A DNA stretch of 64,000 nucleotides, taken from the NCBI GenBank assembly GCA_050287085.1, contig JBNKBE010000007.1, positions 32,001 to 96,000 on the forward strand. Reading direction: 5' to 3'. The notes beneath the pieces were generated by a model that worked only from the letters and a program-made list of their open reading frames with translations, did not search any database and was not told the DNA's origin. The stretch is from Polyangiaceae bacterium. Lineage in GTDB: Bacteria; Myxococcota_A; Polyangia; Polyangiales; Polyangiaceae. The position numbers and the translations under genes were made by a program. Within the stretch, counting starts at the first letter, position 1. The number at the start of each line of letters is the position of its first letter. Below, in pieces: positions 16,696-61,980 of this stretch.

Positions 16696-17900
16696 AGCTG
16701 TTCACCCGCCGCGGACATCGCCGCCGAGAATCCCAAGACGGCGTCCGCAACACGCTGGATGTCGTCCCAGGTGAACGTTGCCTTGACGGTCAGCCGGATC
16801 CGGGCGGCCCCCTCCGGGACCGTCGGAGGCCGGATGGCGACAGCGCGGATCCCCTGCTGGGCCAACCAGGCCGCGCAGGCCAGGGCCCGTCGCTCGTGCC
16901 CCAGAACCACCGGCACAATGGGCCCCCGTCCGGCAACAACCTGCGCTCCACCAGCCGCCAACGCGCTCCGCAGGGCCGCCCCAAGCCCTTCAAGTCGCCT
17001 TCGGGACGCCTCTGCCGCCCGTACCTGCCCCAAGCGCGCTTCCACAGCCGCGCAGAGCGTCGGCGACGGAGCGGTGCTGTACACAAACGACCGCCCGCGG
17101 TTCCAGATGAGGCGGATCAAGTCCGCGGAGCCCGCAACAAAGGCGCCCTGGAGACCGAAGGCCTTTCCAAAGGTACCCACCAGGGCTGTTGGCCTGATGC
17201 CCGCTTCGGCACACAGGCCACGGCCCTGAGGGCCGAAGACACCGAGCGCGTGCGCCTCGTCCACTATCAGGCCTGCGTGGTGCCGGTGTGTGAGGCCGGC
17301 GAGGGCCGCGAGCTCGGGCACGTCGCCGTCCATGCTGAAGTAGGACTCCGTCACCACCCACTTCGCTCCCGAGGAGGGCACGCGCAGGGCTTCGTCCACC
17401 GCTTCAACGCTGAGGTGGGGGCAGACGGTCCGTGCTGCGCCGCTCAAACGAACTCCGTCGATCAAGGAGGCGTGATTGAGCGCGTCGGCAACAACATGGT
17501 CTTCGGGTAGAGCAAGCGCCCCCACAACCGCCAAATTCGCGGCATAGCCGGACGAGAATAGGACTGCGCACTCGGTCCCCAACCAGCGCGCCACGGCTGC
17601 CTCGAGTCGCCGATGGGCTGGTTTGGTGCCGAAAACGAGGCGGCTCGCGCCCGCCCCGGACCACGTTTCACGTGGAACATGCGTCAGGCCCAGGTAGTCG
17701 TTGCTCGCCACGTCCAGGGCGGAGCCCGACCGATCTGGCTTGCGTAGGGCGCCTGCGTCGCACACCCGATAGCGATCGCTCCTCAGCATGGCCACGACCC
17801 GCTCCCGCAGCACCCCGCCGATCGCGCGGCGTTGCTGCACACGACGAGCGATTGCCCTCCTGAGGAGCCCCGCTCTACCCACGCCACGACGCCACTGCAT
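16692..17900 (-). CDS. bioF: 8-amino-7-oxononanoate synthase (start uncertain)
   Basis: SNDYLGL, SGYAAN, NHASLIDG, ESYFSMDGD, DEAHA, GTFGKAFG, IRPPTVP..RIR. Confidence 0.93.
   Translation of the reverse strand: MQWRRGVGRAGLLRRAIARRVQQRRAIGGVLRERVVAMLRSDRYRVCDAGALRKPDRSGSALDVASNDYLGLTHVPRETWSGAGASRLVFGTKPAHRRLEAAVARWLGTECAVLFSSGYAANLAVVGALALPEDHVVADALNHASLIDGVRLSGAARTVCPHLSVEAVDEALRVPSSGAKWVVTESYFSMDGDVPELAALAGLTHRHHAGLIVDEAHALGVFGPQGRGLCAEAGIRPTALVGTFGKAFGLQGAFVAGSADLIRLIWNRGRSFVYSTAPSPTLCAAVEARLGQVRAAEASRRRLEGLGAALRSALAAGGAQVVAGRGPIVPVVLGHERRALACAAWLAQQGIRAVAIRPPTVPEGAARIRLTVKATFTWDDIQRVADAVLGFSAAMSAAGEQL
17664..17679. other. parS-like ParB-binding site inside bioF
   Basis: CGTTTCACGTGGAACA, 14/16 to the consensus TGTTTCACGTGAAACA. 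Confidence 0.75.
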
Positions 17901-18593
17901 GCGCCGGTGCTACACCTAGTCCGCCGCCGCAGCAATACCGCCAGCTCGCTCCTTCCCGGCACACAGGACCCCCCCTGCGCCCAGCGCGGGCCGCGCCAGG
18001 CTCACCGAGCGCGGCCCGGCCCGCGACAGACCCAAGTACCAGCCAAGTACAAGCTCTCCCCCGCGCCGCAGCGGCCGCCGAGGCGGCCCGGCGACGCTAC
18101 GCACCACGCCCGAGCACGCGCCCGAGGGCCCCTCGTTCCGCACCCACCGCGACGCAAACGCCTCAGAAGGCACCGCCCTTCGAGCTCGAGGGCGTCTAGG
18201 GCGTCTAGGGCGCGAGCTTGGCGACGCCAATCGCCACCAGGATCTTCAATGGCGCGAAGACGCCACCGTGGGAACCCTCACGCAACGGGCGCCGGCCCCT
18301 GAATCCGGCCCGAGTCGGCCGGGGCCCGCCGGGCTGCAGCGCGTCCTGCCGACTTTCGCCCGCCAAGGGCCCCGAGAGCAGCCCATCGAGCATCAGCCCT
18401 TCCAGCGTGGCGGCGCCGGGGAGGCCGCCCGACGAGCCCGACGCACGCGGAAGGCCCTCGCGGCCGCTTCGTGCACCGCGGAGCGCGCTCGCCCGAGCCT
18501 CGCGCCCTGCGTAGGGCCCCCACACCTCACGCCCGCGCAGGGCGCGGGCGCCAGCTGGACGCCCCGCGAAGGGCCTCACGCGACGCCGACGCC

Positions 18594-18659
18594 TCGTGAA
18601 GGACGCTCACCGTCGTGAAGGACGCCCACCGTCGTGAAGGACGCTCACCGTCGTGAAGG
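18594..18659. repeat. 19-bp tandem repeat, about 3.5 copies
   Basis: Unit TCGTGAAGGACGCYCACCG at 18594, 18613 and 18632, partial copy at 18651. Confidence 0.92.
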
Positions 18660-18865
18660 CCCCTCCTACCAGCCTAAGGCGGACGGAGCGGGCTCACGCG
18701 AGCTGGACGCCCGGCAGAAGGCCCCCACGCGACGCCGTGAGGGCTGCTCAGGCCCGCTCACGCGCACGGGGCGCGCTCACGCGGTTGTGACGCCCGGCGC
18801 AAGGGCCTCACGCGAAGCTGACGCCCACGGAAGGCCCCCCACGCTCGGAACCGCTGCGCCGCGCC

Positions 18866-18937
18866 GCCCGTGACTGCAGCCCGTGACTGCAGCCCGTGAC
18901 TGCAGCCCGTGACTGCGGCCCGTGACTGCGGCCCGTG
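18866..18937. repeat. 13-bp tandem repeat, about 5.5 copies
   Basis: Unit GCCCGTGACTGCR at 18866, 18879, 18892, 18905 and 18918, partial copy at 18931. Confidence 0.95.
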
Positions 18938-19022
18938 GCTTTCGCGCACCCGTCTCCTGACGCCGGAGTTTCGGAGGCGTGCGGACCTCGCCCCCCAGCC
19001 TTCATGGGCGAACGCCCGGCGA

Positions 19023-19038
19023 TGTTGCACGTGAAACG
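19023..19038. other. parS-like site in non-coding DNA
   Basis: TGTTGCACGTGAAACG, 14/16 to consensus and one mismatch from the reverse complement of the site at 17664. Confidence 0.65.
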
Positions 19039-19810
19039 TTCGTTGCCACGCACCGCCGCTGCCGCGCCGCCTTACCACGCCCCCCGGTGCCGCACCGGCT
19101 CCTGCCACGCACCGCGACGCTCTTCCCTCGCCGCCGGCCCCCTCAGCCGCTAGCCCGATCCGCGCTGATTGCGGCCGAAAACCGGCTCGGCGCGACGCGC
19201 CAAGCCATCGCGGCGGGGACCGCACATCCCCGCCCGCAGGCTGTGCGGAGCCTACCGCCCCAATCCGTGCCTCACTCACCCTAAGGCCCCAATAGCGCGG
19301 TGCCGTGCCTGCGAACGACGTCCGGCGAGCTTCGGACGTTGCTGCGAAGGCACACGCCCTCTCATGCGCCCGCAACGCCCCGTCCGCCGCGCCCACCTCG
19401 GCCTGATGCTCCCTAGCCGCCGAGGCGCCCAGCTCTCCACCACACCGGATGCTCCCCACCGCGCCGTGAGCCGCCGCCACTTAGGCGTCGCGCCGCCGCC
19501 CTGCCCCCCGGGAACACCTCACGTCCAGCGTCCGACCAGCTCCGACGCTGCCGCTATCATCGCCCAGGCGCCCCTTTCGCCTGCGAAGAACCTCAACGGC
19601 ACCCACCCCTCGGCTCCGACGGGACCCCACGCTCCAGGTGACGCCCTGCAGTCCTCCGAAAGCGCCGCCCAGGAGGCCGCGACCCATGGACCACGGCGCA
19701 GCTCTCGGCGCCCCAACCCCCGGGGGCTCGCGGTCAAGACGCGCAGCTTGCACGCCCCAATCCGCAGCCCGCTCCCCCTCCGGCGCCTCTGGAGTCCGCT
19801 AAACGCGCCA

Positions 19811-19885
19811 TAACTATGCATAATTATTGGCTCTTTCAAGACGGCCTAATAAGAACATCGCCGTCTATATCAAAGCTTGTCTTGA
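19811..19885. promoter_or_regulatory. AT-rich promoter/operator region with palindromes upstream of the TetR gene
   Basis: TAACTATGCATAATTA near-palindrome (19811-19826), plus inverted pairs AGACGGC/GCCGTCT and TCAAGAC/GTCTTGA. Confidence 0.5.
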
Positions 19886-19914
19886 GCCCCATAAAGACAC
19901 TAGCGTTCTGCACA

Positions 19915-56958: not shown

Positions 56959-57318
56959 TCAGTGCTCTCGCTTGGTGAGCAGCTTGGTGATCAGGTCCTG
57001 CGAATACCCGCTGAGCTCCTTGAATACGACGCCCATGCCTGACGGGCTGCTCTGCACGCGCACCACCTCGCCGACCCCCTGGATGCTCTCGATGCTGTCC
57101 ATGATGACAGTGAACTGCAGATCGACGCGCGTACCCACCGGCAACGGGGCGTCCGTCTTGATGAAGACACCGCTCTGCGAGATGTTGGTCACGTATTCCT
57201 GAATGAACTGATCAAAGGAGTCAAACTCCTTGTTGATCGTGACTCGTGCCTCTTGTCTGCCGCTAGGCTCCGAGACTTCGGCGAGCTCCTCAGCGCCCTT
57301 GAAGGTCGTATTGTTCAA
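56959..57318 (-). CDS. PilZ-domain protein (myxobacterial TIGR02266-like)
   Basis: RQEAR (RxxxR), NISQSGVFI, GEVVRV, GMGVVF. Start uncertain, overlaps the rne stop. Confidence 0.88.
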   Translation of the reverse strand: MNNTTFKGAEELAEVSEPSGRQEARVTINKEFDSFDQFIQEYVTNISQSGVFIKTDAPLPVGTRVDLQFTVIMDSIESIQGVGEVVRVQSSPSGMGVVFKELSGYSQDLITKLLTKREH

Positions 57319-60300
57319 TGTGGTACTCCTGTCTAGGAACTAGCTCGATGCGACGCACGTAGCGCCGCTCCGCCTCGACGAGCGCATCCTTGGCCTCAAA
57401 CTTGAGGAAGTCAACCACGGCGGGATGGGCCGCGACGCGAACGGAATAGCCCGGCAACGTTTGTCGCTCGCGACGAATCTGTCGCAGGATCTCATACGCA
57501 ATCGTCTCGCGAGACTGAATGAAGCCGGTTCCGTCGCAGTAGAAACAAGACTCGTGCATGATGCGACCGAGGCTTTCTCGCGTACGCTTTCGCGTCATCT
57601 CGATCAACCCAAGCTCGCTGATGCGATTGATCGTCGTCTTCGCCTTGTCCTTCGCTAGGTGCTTCTCCAGCGCACGCCAGACCTTCTCGCGGTTCTCAGC
57701 GCGCTCCATGTCGATGAGATCTAGGATCACAAGCCCGCCGATATTGCGGAAGCGCAGCTGCTGAGCGATCTCAGAAACGGCCTCCAGGTTGGTCTTCAGC
57801 GCAGTTTCCTCAAGGTCCTTGCTGCCCTTGCCGACGTACCGACCCGTGTTGACGTCAATAGCCGTCAGAGCCTCCGCTTGATCCATAATCAGCGAGCCGC
57901 CACTTGGCAGCGGTACTTTGCGACTCAGCGCACGCTTGATCTCGTCCTCGATGCCATAGGCGTCGAAGATTGGCTCGTCGCCGGTGTAGAGCTTGATGTC
58001 ACCAACACGCGACGGCATGAACATTTCGACGAAACGGACCAGGCGAGCGTACTGATCTTTGTCGTCGATGATCACCTCCGCGACCTCGTCGGTGAAGTAG
58101 TCCCGCGCGACTTTGAGAACGAGATCGAGCTCTTCGTAGAGCACCTCGCGGGCCCGCGCCGCCTTGCGTTTCTCCGCAATGTCTGCCCACACGCGGATGA
58201 GATAGCCCACGTCCGCTTTGAGCTGCTTCTTTGTCAGACCCTCGGCAACGGTGCGCACTATGAGTCCACCGGTAGGTGGTTTCAGCGCGTCAATGACCTT
58301 CCGCAGACGAGAACGCTCTCGTCCTTGACCAATTCGCTTGGAGATGCCCGTGTGCTCGACGGTCGGAAGATAGACCACGTAGCGACCAGGAAGCGAAACG
58401 TGACTCGTAACCCGCGCCCCCTTTGTTCCGATCGGCTCCTTGGTGATCTGCACCACGACTTGGTCACCCTCGCGTACAACCTCCGTGATCGGAACGGAAC
58501 GGGAAACCCTGGCGGGTACTTTCGTAGGATCGAGCTCGATCGCGTTCCGGGTGGACGTCTTCCTGGGCTCCTCACCAACGGCACTTCCGCGCCGACGACG
58601 ACGGCCTCGTCGTCTCTTGCCACGACGATCGTCGGCTGGCTCCTCATCGCCAGCGTCCGCCGACGACACCTCTTCGGGGGCCTCTCCGGCGTCACTGGCC
58701 TCTCTTACGACGCTAGCTTCGTCATCGCCGGCAGAAGCGCGACGACGACGACGACGGCGACGGCGATAGCGCGCCGGGGGCTCAGCGTCCTCATCCGCAA
58801 AGGACTCGTCCGCAGGGGCAACGGCCGGCTCACCATCAGCCTCTGGGGCGTCGCCGTCCGCGTCAGCGGATTGCACGGTTGCCGCATGATCCGTACGTCC
58901 CAAGCCAGCAGAGCGGTGGCGCGAACGACGACGGCCACGTCGGGTACGCCGGGCTCCAGCGCCGGTATCGGATTGTCGGTCTTCCGAGTTCGACGAGTCC
59001 AACGCACGATCGTCCGTTGCATCCTCGTCCGCGGACTCCGCTAGCTCAGCTGCATCCGAATCCCTATCGGCATCTTCCTCGGACTCCGCGTCTCGGCCCA
59101 GATCTTCGGCGGCGTCGTCTTCCTCGTAGTCTGCATCCCCGATCCCGTCCGCATCAGGCTCACCAACGCCCGATTCGTCGCCTTCGTCCTCCAGATCGTC
59201 CGCGGCTTCGTCATCGGCTGCCTCGTCGTCGAAGTCGTCCCCTAGATCGCCGTCTTCGTCTTCGTCGAAGTCGCTATCGTCGTCCGCTAGCTCGCCATCT
59301 TCGTCGTCATCTTCGTCGAAGTCGCTATCGTCATCCGGGTCGTCCGCTAGCTCGCCATCTTCGTCTTCGTCTTCGTCTTCGTCTTCGTCTTCGTCGAAGC
59401 CGTTATCGTCGTCCGGGTCGTCCGCTAGCTCGTCGTCATCTTCGTCTTCGTCGAAGTCCCGGTCGTCCAGATCGTCGGCAAGCTCGTCGTCCTCGTCGTC
59501 CGCCGCCTCATCATCATCCTCGTCGAAATACTCGACCTCGTCGTCGCTGATGGAATCGTAGTCGTCATCCAGATCGACGTCTGGGTAGTCCTCGTCGCTG
59601 TCCGCCTCGTCCTCGTCGCCGTCCTGAGCCGCTTCCTCGCTACCCACGTCGTCGCCGTCGTCGTCCGAAGCGTCGTCACCGTCGTCGTCCGAAGCGTCGT
59701 CACCGTCGTCGTCCGAATCGTCTGCGGGCGCCGCGGAGGCCCGACGCGTCGAGTCCGCTTCGAGACCCTCTCCCAACAGCCCATCGCTCGGGGCGGAATC
59801 CGCAGCCCCCTCGCTCAGCGCGTCTTCGTCCTGTTCCTCATCCGCCGCGCTCGAAGCGAGCAGAACACCGTCCTCGTTCCGCCCTGCGCCCGGTCCGCGA
59901 CGGCCGCCCCTCGAACGGCGTGAACGCCGACGCCGACGCCGTCCACCGCCATCTTCGCCGTCCACGCTTACAACGTCCTCAGCAGAGCTGGTCTTGGCCT
60001 CGGTCCCGGACGCCTCGCTCCCATCTCGTTGTTGGGTGGCCTTGGACAGTGCCTGGGTGTTCGCCGCCAGGTAAGCGTCGAAGTCCTTCGGTCGAATCAA
60101 GTCCTCGACGTGCAGAAAAGCCGCGCGCTCCTGCCCCACGTCGATGAACGCCGCCTGCATACCAGGCAGCACTCGAGTGACCTTGCCCAGAACGACGTTG
60201 CCGACGGTTCCCCGATGCGCGGAACGCTCGATGTGCAGCTCCGCAATTACCCCCTCTTGGATCAGCGCGACGCGCGTCTCCCGGAGGTCAACGTTAATAA

Positions 60301-60319
60301 CGATAATATCTTTAGCCAT
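57290..60319 (-). CDS. rne: Ribonuclease E/G with a very large low-complexity insertion in the S1 domain
   Basis: GKVTRVLPGMQAAFIDVG...QITKEPIGTKGAR, IDVNTG, QLRFRNIGG..D.IDM, EMTRKR, CFYCDGTG. Confidence 0.95.
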   Translation of the reverse strand: MAKDIIVINVDLRETRVALIQEGVIAELHIERSAHRGTVGNVVLGKVTRVLPGMQAAFIDVGQERAAFLHVEDLIRPKDFDAYLAANTQALSKATQQRDGSEASGTEAKTSSAEDVVSVDGEDGGGRRRRRRSRRSRGGRRGPGAGRNEDGVLLASSAADEEQDEDALSEGAADSAPSDGLLGEGLEADSTRRASAAPADDSDDDGDDASDDDGDDASDDDGDDVGSEEAAQDGDEDEADSDEDYPDVDLDDDYDSISDDEVEYFDEDDDEAADDEDDELADDLDDRDFDEDEDDDELADDPDDDNGFDEDEDEDEDEDEDGELADDPDDDSDFDEDDDEDGELADDDSDFDEDEDGDLGDDFDDEAADDEAADDLEDEGDESGVGEPDADGIGDADYEEDDAAEDLGRDAESEEDADRDSDAAELAESADEDATDDRALDSSNSEDRQSDTGAGARRTRRGRRRSRHRSAGLGRTDHAATVQSADADGDAPEADGEPAVAPADESFADEDAEPPARYRRRRRRRRRASAGDDEASVVREASDAGEAPEEVSSADAGDEEPADDRRGKRRRGRRRRRGSAVGEEPRKTSTRNAIELDPTKVPARVSRSVPITEVVREGDQVVVQITKEPIGTKGARVTSHVSLPGRYVVYLPTVEHTGISKRIGQGRERSRLRKVIDALKPPTGGLIVRTVAEGLTKKQLKADVGYLIRVWADIAEKRKAARAREVLYEELDLVLKVARDYFTDEVAEVIIDDKDQYARLVRFVEMFMPSRVGDIKLYTGDEPIFDAYGIEDEIKRALSRKVPLPSGGSLIMDQAEALTAIDVNTGRYVGKGSKDLEETALKTNLEAVSEIAQQLRFRNIGGLVILDLIDMERAENREKVWRALEKHLAKDKAKTTINRISELGLIEMTRKRTRESLGRIMHESCFYCDGTGFIQSRETIAYEILRQIRRERQTLPGYSVRVAAHPAVVDFLKFEAKDALVEAERRYVRRIELVPRQEYHIEQYDLQGR
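59250..59717 (-). repeat. Coding repeats inside the acidic insertion of rne
   Basis: 27-bp tandem units (DDDGDDASD) near 59647-59717, repeated ELADD..D..FDEDED blocks, and (TCTTCG)6 at 59358-59393. Confidence 0.88.
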
Positions 60320-61125
60320 TTACTGCGTAGAACGCAGCCGACTACCTGGTGCGATACCGCCGAGGTCAAACCCTTGAGATGTCGTCACGCCCAGTCTGGA
60401 CGCTGGATCCGCGGGGACCCAAGCGCCTACTGCGGGGAAGGGCATGAAACGCCCGTCCCTCGTCCTGGCCGACCCATGGCTCGCTGGTGGTGATTCGTGG
60501 CGCCAGTCCGCTGCCACAAGCCCAGCCAACGCGGTGGTACGACCCCTGACCGTTCGGCGCCGCGTATTGGACACGGCGAACAGCGATGCGGCAGACGGTG
60601 CAAAAACCACGATCATCTCTCGAAAGGCCTCAATCTCAGGACCTCGCTGGTCACCGGACCGCAAGCGAAGTCCCAATGGAATCAAACTACACAGGTACCG
60701 GCTGCCCGTTGGAGGTCCCGGTCCAAGGACCGTGACCGATGTGGGTTTCCGAGTGAGCCCCACAGGGACGGCACACCCGGTGCTAGTAACCAATTGAATT
60801 CTCTGGCCCTCGGGCTCTGAGCCCAGGGCGGCGGGACGACAGCCGAGACTGGAAGATCTCCTGCCGACCCGAAACACTTCTCATCAAACCTGGGAACGTG
60901 CCGTTTCATTCCGATGCCAGCACATTCCGCCCTGCCTTGGGCAGGGCCTACCCGCTGTCGCGGCAATAGCCTCGTCACTCGCCCACTCCCTAGAGTCGGC
61001 ATTGCTTGGCATCACCTGCGTTTCGACGGCTTTCCGCCGCCAACCTCCATACGGTCTAGTTTGGCATGGCCGCTGTCGCGACGAGCCTTGTCAAAGATTG
61101 CGGGCTCCCCAAAATAGAAGCCCTG
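60320..61125 (-). ncRNA. Candidate large structured RNA / 5' leader of rne
   Basis: No credible ORF. Many hairpins and long-range helices pair better on the minus strand via G-U. Upstream promoter-like element. Confidence 0.55.
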
Positions 61126-61132
61126 GGCTTCT

Positions 61133-61161
61133 GTGATAGCCCAAGGTCGGGAGTCGATCAA
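61133..61161 (-). promoter_or_regulatory. Putative sigma70-type promoter pointing toward rne
   Basis: TTGATC-17 nt-TATCAC on the minus strand, followed by the palindrome AGAAGCCC-T-GGGCTTCT (61116-61132). Confidence 0.45.
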
Positions 61162-61239
61162 CGCGTATCGACGGAAGCTTGACACTCCCGGCAGACCCGT
61201 CCGCTATTCAGGCCCTTGCGACTTCGGGTCCCGAGGCCG

Positions 61240-61980
61240 ATGCTGCCTGAAATGGACCGCACGACGCTGGTACTCGACATCGAAACCATCCTCGATCCCA
61301 ATCTGCCCCTGAACGAGCGGACCGAATCGGAGGGGCTCCCGGCGCCGCCACACCACTCGCTCGTCTGCATCGGTGTGCTCTGGCTCGACCAAGACCTAGC
61401 GGTCAAACGCCTCGGTATCATTGGCGAGGGCAAAGACGAGGCCGGAATCGTGGCCGACTTCGCACAATTCCTCGATCGTCACCGTCCAACCCTCGTCACG
61501 TTCAACGGCCGGGGCTTCGACCTCCCCGTAATCGCCGCGCGCTGCCTCAAACACGGTCAGCCCTTCACCTACTACTATCGCGATCGGGACGTGCGGTACC
61601 GCTTTTCTCCAGACGGACACCTGGATCTCATGGACTACCTCGCCGACTTCGGCGCCGCGAAGCGCTCGCGCCTGGACACGATGGCCCGCCTATGCGGCAT
61701 GCCCGGCAAGGTGGGCGTCGATGGCAAAGACGTCGGACCCATGGTGCATGCCGGACGCCTCGCAGAGGTGCAGAACTATTGCCTCTGCGACGTCGTACAG
61801 ACGGCTGGAGTATTCCTGCGCACACAGTTGCTTAGAGGTGAACTGGCACGAGAGCACTATCTGGTCGCCATGCGCTCTTTGATGAGTACCGCACGTGACG
61901 ATGAGCGAACCAGAGCCGTGGCAGACGCGTGGGAAGTTGACGTATTGCTCCTGGGCGAGGAGTTGTCCAACGACGAGTAG
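61240..61980 (+). CDS. 3'-5' exonuclease, PolB-exonuclease-like (DEDDy)
   Basis: LDIET, LVTFNGRGFDLP, HLDLMD, GMPGK, YCLCDV. Confidence 0.9.
   Translation: MLPEMDRTTLVLDIETILDPNLPLNERTESEGLPAPPHHSLVCIGVLWLDQDLAVKRLGIIGEGKDEAGIVADFAQFLDRHRPTLVTFNGRGFDLPVIAARCLKHGQPFTYYYRDRDVRYRFSPDGHLDLMDYLADFGAAKRSRLDTMARLCGMPGKVGVDGKDVGPMVHAGRLAEVQNYCLCDVVQTAGVFLRTQLLRGELAREHYLVAMRSLMSTARDDERTRAVADAWEVDVLLLGEELSNDE

Follow-up and report, generated by a model that had tools for sequence, protein, structure and literature searches.

The rne locus and its intergenic gap

The stretch of DNA analysed here (the window, 64,000 nt from a Polyangiaceae genome) contains on its minus strand a gene for a Rne/Rng family ribonuclease (57290-60319) which together with a divergent exonuclease gene bounds a non-coding gap at 60320-61251. 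The genome has a completeness of 97%, and the nuclease gene is the single PF10150 gene detected in it. The best equivalog of the encoded protein is RNase G, with 504 bits versus a cut-off of 594. The protein is devoid of a C-terminal tail and carries an acidic, Arg-patched insert of 524 aa at approximately residues 81-604 (26% D, 13% E, and 10% R), which probably falls within the S1 domain. The rne open frames of the same genus reach up to 1023 aa, and in the order's other families they comprise 509-718 aa. The rne-proximal part of the gap is most likely the 805-nt 5′ untranslated leader of the mRNA of this sole Rne/Rng gene. The features of the region are:

57290-60319, minus: Rne/Rng family ribonuclease, 1009 aa (PF10150, E 5e-100; TIGR00757 above cut-off)
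60320-60348, minus: AUG-proximal segment without Shine-Dalgarno sequence, two mutually exclusive predicted folds
60349-60844, minus: 3′ block of the leader, lineage-private, window z at the level of shuffles
60829-60806, 60676-60636, and 60584-60549, minus: local hairpins of the 3′ block (full-ensemble folding)
60705-60692, minus: 5′ arm of a tentative long helix in the 3′ block, partner 60348-60334
60845-61091, minus: 5′ block of the leader, lineage-private, stable hairpins (window z -2.1 to -3.7; pair probabilities 0.86-1.0), no homologue
61042-61024, 60947-60929, 60928-60893, and 60866-60837, minus: hairpins of the 5′ block (full-ensemble folding)
61092-61101, minus: conserved purine/U-rich linker GCAAUCUUUG, candidate nuclease entry site
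61102-61123, minus: P1, 5′-terminal hairpin of 8 bp (pair probability 0.96-1.0 in 9/9 folding settings)
61124, minus: predicted transcription start (A of AGGG), placed by spacing
61133-61138, minus: -10 box TATCAC, 6-8 nt before AGG; L012 and L014 share the hexamer, the other relatives have variants that begin with TA
61156-61161, minus: -35 box TTGATC (predicted promoter); TTG(A/T/C).. stands 17-18 nt ahead of the TA box in 16/16 aligned relatives and here
61216-61244, plus: predicted exonuclease promoter, TTGCGA-17-GATGCT-7-ATG
61216-61980, plus: divergent exonuclease gene (PF10108), ATG at 61252, bounds the region

The gap measures 932 nt here, compared with a median of 276 nt (quartiles 229-442) in 53 other exonuclease-linked loci; in all, 54 distinct rne loci retain the divergent exonuclease. 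Two loci have a longer gap, which consists of extra genes in one case (L078) and of extra sequence upstream of the promoter in the other (L020). The original prediction had called the gene-free stretch unusually long. It is long and non-coding but not unique, as 113 of the 4,112 gaps that a rough gene caller found in the genome are at least 900 nt. The widest gap of the window, again by rough gene calling, lies between divergent genes at ~17840-19914 (2,074 nt) and may contain missed genes. On the other side of the region the exonuclease gene apparently has no leader; it starts at ATG 61252 and not at TTG 61216. Boxes of the type TTGAC/xATxCT are found 5-8 nt ahead of the exonuclease start in many relatives, and 7 of 54 loci show the strict pattern. 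The stretch is covered with zero differences and flat depth by one assembled contig of 15,078 nt, whose run is the only one found to contain this DNA and may be the source of the assembly. Among the public runs listed as containing it there is no RNA run. Among the contigs of three DNA runs no variant of the leader occurs, and hence there is no within-species covariation.

The gap is non-coding, as computed from dicodon log-odds: all five ORFs scored in it are negative (-0.11 to -0.32 per codon), and eight neighbouring genes reach +0.06 to +0.40 per codon. A frame of 185 codons (60877-60320) might be read as a real gene coupled to rne, since it ends directly at the rne ATG, in the same frame, and since it was once called as a gene in a protein collection (its own record). 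This coding alternative, which the original prediction had itself named, fails, as the frame scores -0.19 per codon, finds only itself among 1,321 candidates, is present in 0/17 genus genomes, and has neither a Pfam match nor an Atlas match, though recognition was 2736. We regard a gene at this position as very unlikely indeed.

The original prediction had proposed a comparison with Rfam and had not matched the stretch by eye to RNase P, tmRNA, SRP, 6S RNA, or a riboswitch. In agreement with this, none of 4,227 families (including riboswitches, introns, and large ncRNAs) reaches its gathering score within the window and none is found at E<=10 within 60000-61600. RNase P, SRP, 6S, and tmRNA models do not match at the stretch, and their copies are located on contigs C8, C22, C6, and C1, respectively. 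The 6S RNA candidate (G000:C6:37011-37200, L219) is a full-length match with 37.4 bits, below the Rfam cut-off of 46.4. Membership in RF00040, the rne5 family of E. coli and the Enterobacterales, was likewise rejected (the genome yields no match even at E<=1, and 60000-61600 none at E<=10); at the gathering score of 180 none of the 18 genus genomes passes, and the E. coli control was detected. Searches of the minus strand found neither a terminator inside the leader nor a second promoter. A terminator-like call at 61146-61121 was discarded since it overlaps the promoter, and none of the aligned relatives has an equivalent of a promoter-like call on the plus strand (61088-61115).

A conserved promoter, hairpin, and linker

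The element TTGATC-17-TATCAC, which the original prediction had placed upstream of the leader, is present at 61161-61133 and is conserved ahead of rne in relatives. The 5′ features of the Polyangiaceae leader type are found here, namely the TA box, the distance of 6-8 nt, the terminal hairpin starting A-GG(G/A), and the purine/U-rich linker. The original prediction had furthermore assigned the RNA to the minus strand on the basis of its helices. This argument does not hold, as both strands fold beyond shuffles (minus z -2.8 and in a repeat -3.0, plus -3.2 and -2.4). We assign the minus strand because of the conserved promoter and not because of the folding.

Weights for promoter, P1, and linker were derived from 16 relatives (14 genomes of the same genus, one of the same family, and one named record); left out were L010 (98% identical to L007), L006 (where the -35 box alone is visible), and this genome. 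With this model the site scores 24.6 bits, the next best position in the gap 0.2; it ranks first of 12,365,642 genome positions, 0/1,000 shuffles score as high, and in leave-one-out runs the correct site was recovered in 16/16 cases. These figures are to be read with two reservations: the motif blocks were picked by eye when this sequence was already known, and the loci are kin. In the strict and relaxed descriptors the -35 box was dropped and longer hairpins were allowed. The strict descriptor is found in 20 of 132 distinct rne loci, with 0 in the reverse-complement control and 0-2 in five rounds of shuffles. A relaxed score of at least 14 is reached by 43/132 rne loci (26 training loci, 16 new ones, and this one) as compared to 1/264 shuffles and 1/132 reverse complements; the other 89 rne loci stay below the threshold. 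Within this genome the relaxed score picks out 101 sites, among which the leader site ranks second. A second site of the relaxed module in the window lies at ~21574 (minus strand, score 21.3), 80 nt before an ORF of 250 aa. In the relatives the hairpin equivalent to P1 is variable in sequence and 14-66 nt long, and when downstream sequence is co-folded its outer pair reaches a probability of at least 0.5 in only 21/43 loci.

The linker, which follows P1 at 20-60 nt into the transcript, is conserved across genera, with a family consensus of approximately R-A-A-R-x-Y-U-U-U (column counts, 43 loci). It is more open than the remaining leader in 37/43 loci and is here 0.81 unpaired in span-limited folding. 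According to PMC10989929, RNase E prefers RN/WUU. Within the linker RN/WUU occurs in 6/17 leaders and RN/WU in 14/17, and neither occurs in the linker here; elsewhere in the 805-nt leader there are eight RN/WUU sites, three of them with an unpaired probability of at least 0.7.

The promoter, P1, and the linker are thus orthologous to those of the relatives. The original prediction had considered a lineage-specific leader as one possibility, and this possibility finds support in that the promoter, the predicted start near 61124, and the first hairpin are conserved ahead of the relatives' rne. The Polyangiaceae-wide 5′ module is a firmer new result than the 805-nt body.

Folding and relatives of the leader body

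Among 190 loci with an rne match, 132 of them distinct, the implied leader lengths are 111-560 nt in 42 other loci and 805 nt here, which makes this leader the longest of the Polyangiaceae type within this sample; two weaker matches imply leaders of 771 and 780 nt, with scores (12-13) near background. In a tree of 20 loci this genome groups with six members of the genus (support 98/97), and the leaders of these six measure 146-162 nt, those of the closest clade 146-168 nt. Both the rne and the exonuclease of another record, L122, which is titled Propionibacterium sp., group within this Polyangiaceae genus; the record is probably a mis-binned contig. Eight short leaders share the order P1 - linker - P2 hairpin - P3 domain, the latter closed ~8 nt before the AUG. 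In these 76.7% of the cells are paired versus 68.9+/-2.1 and the covariation score is above 500/500 shuffles; double-sided pair changes are not above shuffles (83/500), and the structure was derived from the same eight sequences. A second clade of the genus keeps the 5′ module and a 3′ motif, and between the two its leaders vary from 170 to 419 nt. Twenty-six further leaders of the family have a mean z of -2.6 (16/26 at or below -2, 9/26 at or below -3), and many of them are closed by a hairpin only 0-4 nt ahead of the start codon. From these z scores and lengths it follows that long, structured, and fast-changing rne leaders are common in the family and that a z near -3 is not exceptional.

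Some other loci deserve mention for their own sake. The leaders of L147, L156, L158, L166, L067, and L157 are 273-560 nt long with z down to -7.4, have internal motifs in common together with a GGGCGGGAAAG hairpin abutting the AUG, and suit a covariation study better than the 805-nt leader. A conserved element of ~90 nt that 19 loci of other genera share ahead of rne is SRP RNA (7/8 scanned) and not a leader motif. In the Labilithrix-like group a distance of 270-720 nt separates this small SRP RNA gene from the rne downstream of it, the two being on the same strand in 6/7 confirmed cases (L156:1860-1946, L158, L067, L083, L074, L044, and L155). Tandem repeats lengthen the upstream region of rne in L133, L141, and L009.

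Beyond the first ~33 nt the leader of this genome is private. Its remaining ~770 nt are without detectable homologue, with nothing above chance in the 190 rne loci or in 382 family genomes, so that the 805-nt fold is known from one genome only. BLAST found the leader in 0/60 relatives at E<=0.001, and 44 of the 382 family genomes, with two candidates scored per genome, had matches at E<=0.05, all of them scattered stretches of 20-52 nt. A covariance model of the eight short leaders, which recovered its training set, duplicates, and L006 (E 0.004) and convincingly no other genus, has no significant match to the 805-nt leader, nor do five profile HMMs match it. The shared k-mer score is not above shuffles (59/300 and 47/300), the likeness of the 3′ tail to relatives ranks 403rd among 3,736 control upstream regions, and likenesses to the P3 arms of relatives seen by eye failed formal tests. 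The P2 hairpin of the closest clade and its CAGGGGC/GCCCCUG-type P3 were not detected here (model R1 without significant match; motif scans not above shuffles). No second copy of the leader is found in the genome, no tandem repeats account for it (there are two-copy repeats of 9-18 nt only), and its GC content is similar to that of the genome.

The original prediction had described about 800 nt of dense structure. Over the whole stretch the above z scores apply (20 shuffles each for -2.8 and -3.2), but the structure is unevenly distributed. For the 5′ 400 nt z is -4.0, beyond all 83 control stretches, which were taken from 659 candidates in long gaps of this genome and have a minimum z of -2.9 (none at or below -3, six at or below -2); the 3′ 400 nt have z -1.9 and are ordinary versus these gaps. 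Among windows of 120 nt a z of -2 to -3.7 is confined to 61124-60845, those from 60924 downwards have -1.2 to +0.8, and 60844-60320 folded as a whole gives -2.9. The dense structure is therefore upheld for the 5′ half and not for the 3′ half. As for individual helices, the six local hairpins listed in the original prediction all exist, and the five internal ones have probabilities of 0.73-1.0 in the full ensemble. Its four long-range pairings are complementary as written (the fourth requires a bulge) but have mean pair probabilities of 0.000-0.009; they cost 2.9-7.7 kcal/mol each and 11.9 together, and are disfavoured because they compete with local hairpins.

At the start codon two predicted folds exclude each other, a hairpin at 60338-60322 which ends 2 nt before the AUG and the long helix 60705-60692/60348-60334, and they are only 0.3 kcal/mol apart. 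No other long-range helix of the leader is stronger than this long helix, but its probability varies between 0.12 and 0.84 across nine folding settings, and 697 of 1,000 shuffles contain an equally strong one (112 of 1,000 if its position is required). In one ensemble the leader forms two adjacent domains of ~350 and ~370 nt in the same order as P2 and P3 of the relatives, and such a two-domain fold may tentatively be modelled. A predicted pairing between the linker and codons 2-4 (probability 0.82) was dropped from consideration, its probability falling to 0.03-0.09 when more coding sequence is included. The lack of a Shine-Dalgarno sequence at the rne ATG, also remarked on originally, is true but ordinary: none of 18 related rne leaders has one, and it is found in only 20% of 3,736 roughly called genes.

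Possible functions of the leader

Long rne leaders unrelated to this one are already known to mediate feedback in gamma- and alpha-proteobacteria (E. coli, Caulobacter) and in a cyanobacterium (Synechocystis). The E. coli leader measures 361 nt, folds into hp1, hp2, and a branched hp3, and confers 25-fold feedback, and the structure of this type is kept at ~70% sequence divergence (PMC13692253); its plan is hp1 - ss1 with the cleavage site - hp2 - hp3 (PMC13692253 and PMC11321048). The gene here likewise belongs to the RNase E family, and the P1 - linker - P2 - P3 order of the short relatives parallels this plan. In contrast to E. coli, the leader here has 805 nt, no Shine-Dalgarno sequence, no RF00040 match, and no element identified as hp2- or hp3-like, and its nuclease carries the acidic insert internally while lacking a C-terminal tail. 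The class II rne leader of Caulobacter and other alpha-proteobacteria is structured, stands outside Rfam, and mediates feedback; for this feedback the enzyme's disordered C-terminal region is required both in E. coli and in Caulobacter. The class II leader is reported to be alignable to the E. coli type, whereas nothing here aligns (PMC11321048). For length the best analogy is Synechocystis PCC 6803, albeit from a different phylum: RNase E cuts its rne 5′ UTR of 583 nt at a conserved U-rich element, its rne-leader transcripts accumulate separately, and Figure S1A of the same report presents further long cyanobacterial rne leaders (PMC10989929). The U-rich site lies ~230 nt inside the Synechocystis leader, whereas the conserved one here lies 24-33 nt inside. 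The rne-II motif RF01756 of the Pseudomonadales, a candidate cis-regulatory RNA which is specific to its clade and takes its name from rne (PMC2864571), is from another phylum, and no Rfam family matches at this stretch.

We suggest, as a reading with an even chance of being right, that the 805-nt leader is feedback-controlled and that the nuclease limits its own production. This suggestion is based on the position of the leader, the conserved and presumably transcribed 5′ module with its open U-rich segment, the structured bodies in the family, and the precedent of other rne leaders. RNA polymerase would start at ~61124, and leader and gene would form a single transcription unit which opens with P1, followed by the unpaired purine/U-rich linker and a fast-evolving, partly structured body, and which reaches a start codon without Shine-Dalgarno sequence flanked by structure. 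The nuclease would bind the structured body and cut the leader at the linker or at other U-rich unpaired sites, so that high nuclease activity would lead to faster decay of its own mRNA, and the hairpin adjoining the AUG might keep translation low. Against feedback count the linker, which lacks RN/WUU here, and the nuclease, which lacks a C-terminal disordered region.

An rne leader can also be imagined without feedback, its 5′ end serving promoter function and 5′-end stability and its body being tolerated filler from slippage and drift. This would fit the length range of 111-805 nt with bodies that are not alignable even inside one genus, the tandem repeats that visibly lengthen some upstream regions (L009, L133, and L141), the expanded leaders of the same genus with z between -3.2 and +1.2, and the 3′ 400 nt that fold like control gaps. 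Nevertheless, the linker is conserved downstream of P1 across genera, the 5′ 400 nt fold beyond every one of the 83 controls, the leaders of the family are structured on average, and tandem repeats do not explain the 805 nt, so that we consider filler unlikely, though it carries real weight. A foreign insertion, that is, a remnant of a mobile element or gene in a normal leader of 150 nt, with rne perhaps using an internal promoter, would account for the five-fold jump from the 146-168 nt of the closest clade, and a motif resembling the AUG-proximal one of the relatives is found at 60948, the expected end of the ancestral leader (22/300 shuffles score as high, not significant). Yet the sequence is single copy, has no six-frame match to the genome, the collected loci, or Pfam, has the GC content of the genome, and contains no second minus-strand promoter. 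A MITE or IS remnant was specifically rejected, there being no terminal inverted repeats, no phage match, and one plasmid match of 44 nt (E 0.02). We hold an insertion to be improbable.

The original prediction had in addition entertained an independent new large ncRNA. This part is not sustained, since sequence conservation ends after the first ~33 nt, the leaders of the relatives have 111-560 nt, no minus-strand terminator is found inside the leader, and the proposed long-range helices are disfavoured. In a wider sense a functional large RNA could be a stable RNA released by cleavage or termination, or a switch that senses a ligand or protein and in which the long helix alternates with the AUG-proximal hairpin. 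The z of -4.0 of the 5′ 400 nt, the near-tie of the two start-codon folds, and the separate rne-leader transcripts of Synechocystis (PMC10989929) speak for it, but the missing homologue in 382 family genomes and 190 rne loci and the missing terminator speak against it, SRP RNA, RNase P, tmRNA, and the 6S candidate sit elsewhere in the genome, near-ties are common in GC-rich RNA of such length, and the helix is not unusual; we find it quite improbable. Hardly more credit can be given to the idea that the ~770 private bases form a functional large RNA fold of recent origin, in which two modelled domains of ~350-370 nt, closed by 61054-61042/60717-60706 and 60705-60692/60348-60334, would have grown inside P2 and P3 of the clade. 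The nuclease or another signal would switch the AUG, which has no Shine-Dalgarno sequence, between open and hairpin-blocked, and a stable RNA of ~800 nt would possibly be left over. If true, this would be a regulatory RNA grown five-fold within one genus and the longest rne leader among the published ones compared.

Returning to the feedback-controlled leader, the specific 805-nt fold, found in one genome only, matters less than the conserved 5′ module. The Polyangiaceae rne leader type is previously undescribed; our search, which covered few subscription papers, found no published account of a myxobacterial rne leader. The conserved module is a testable candidate for RNase E feedback in the Myxococcota, and it would be a candidate for feedback with an enzyme whose disordered region is internal and not C-terminal. 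Furthermore, the lengths of 111-805 nt on a fixed 5′ end offer a natural series for locating which part of the leader matters.
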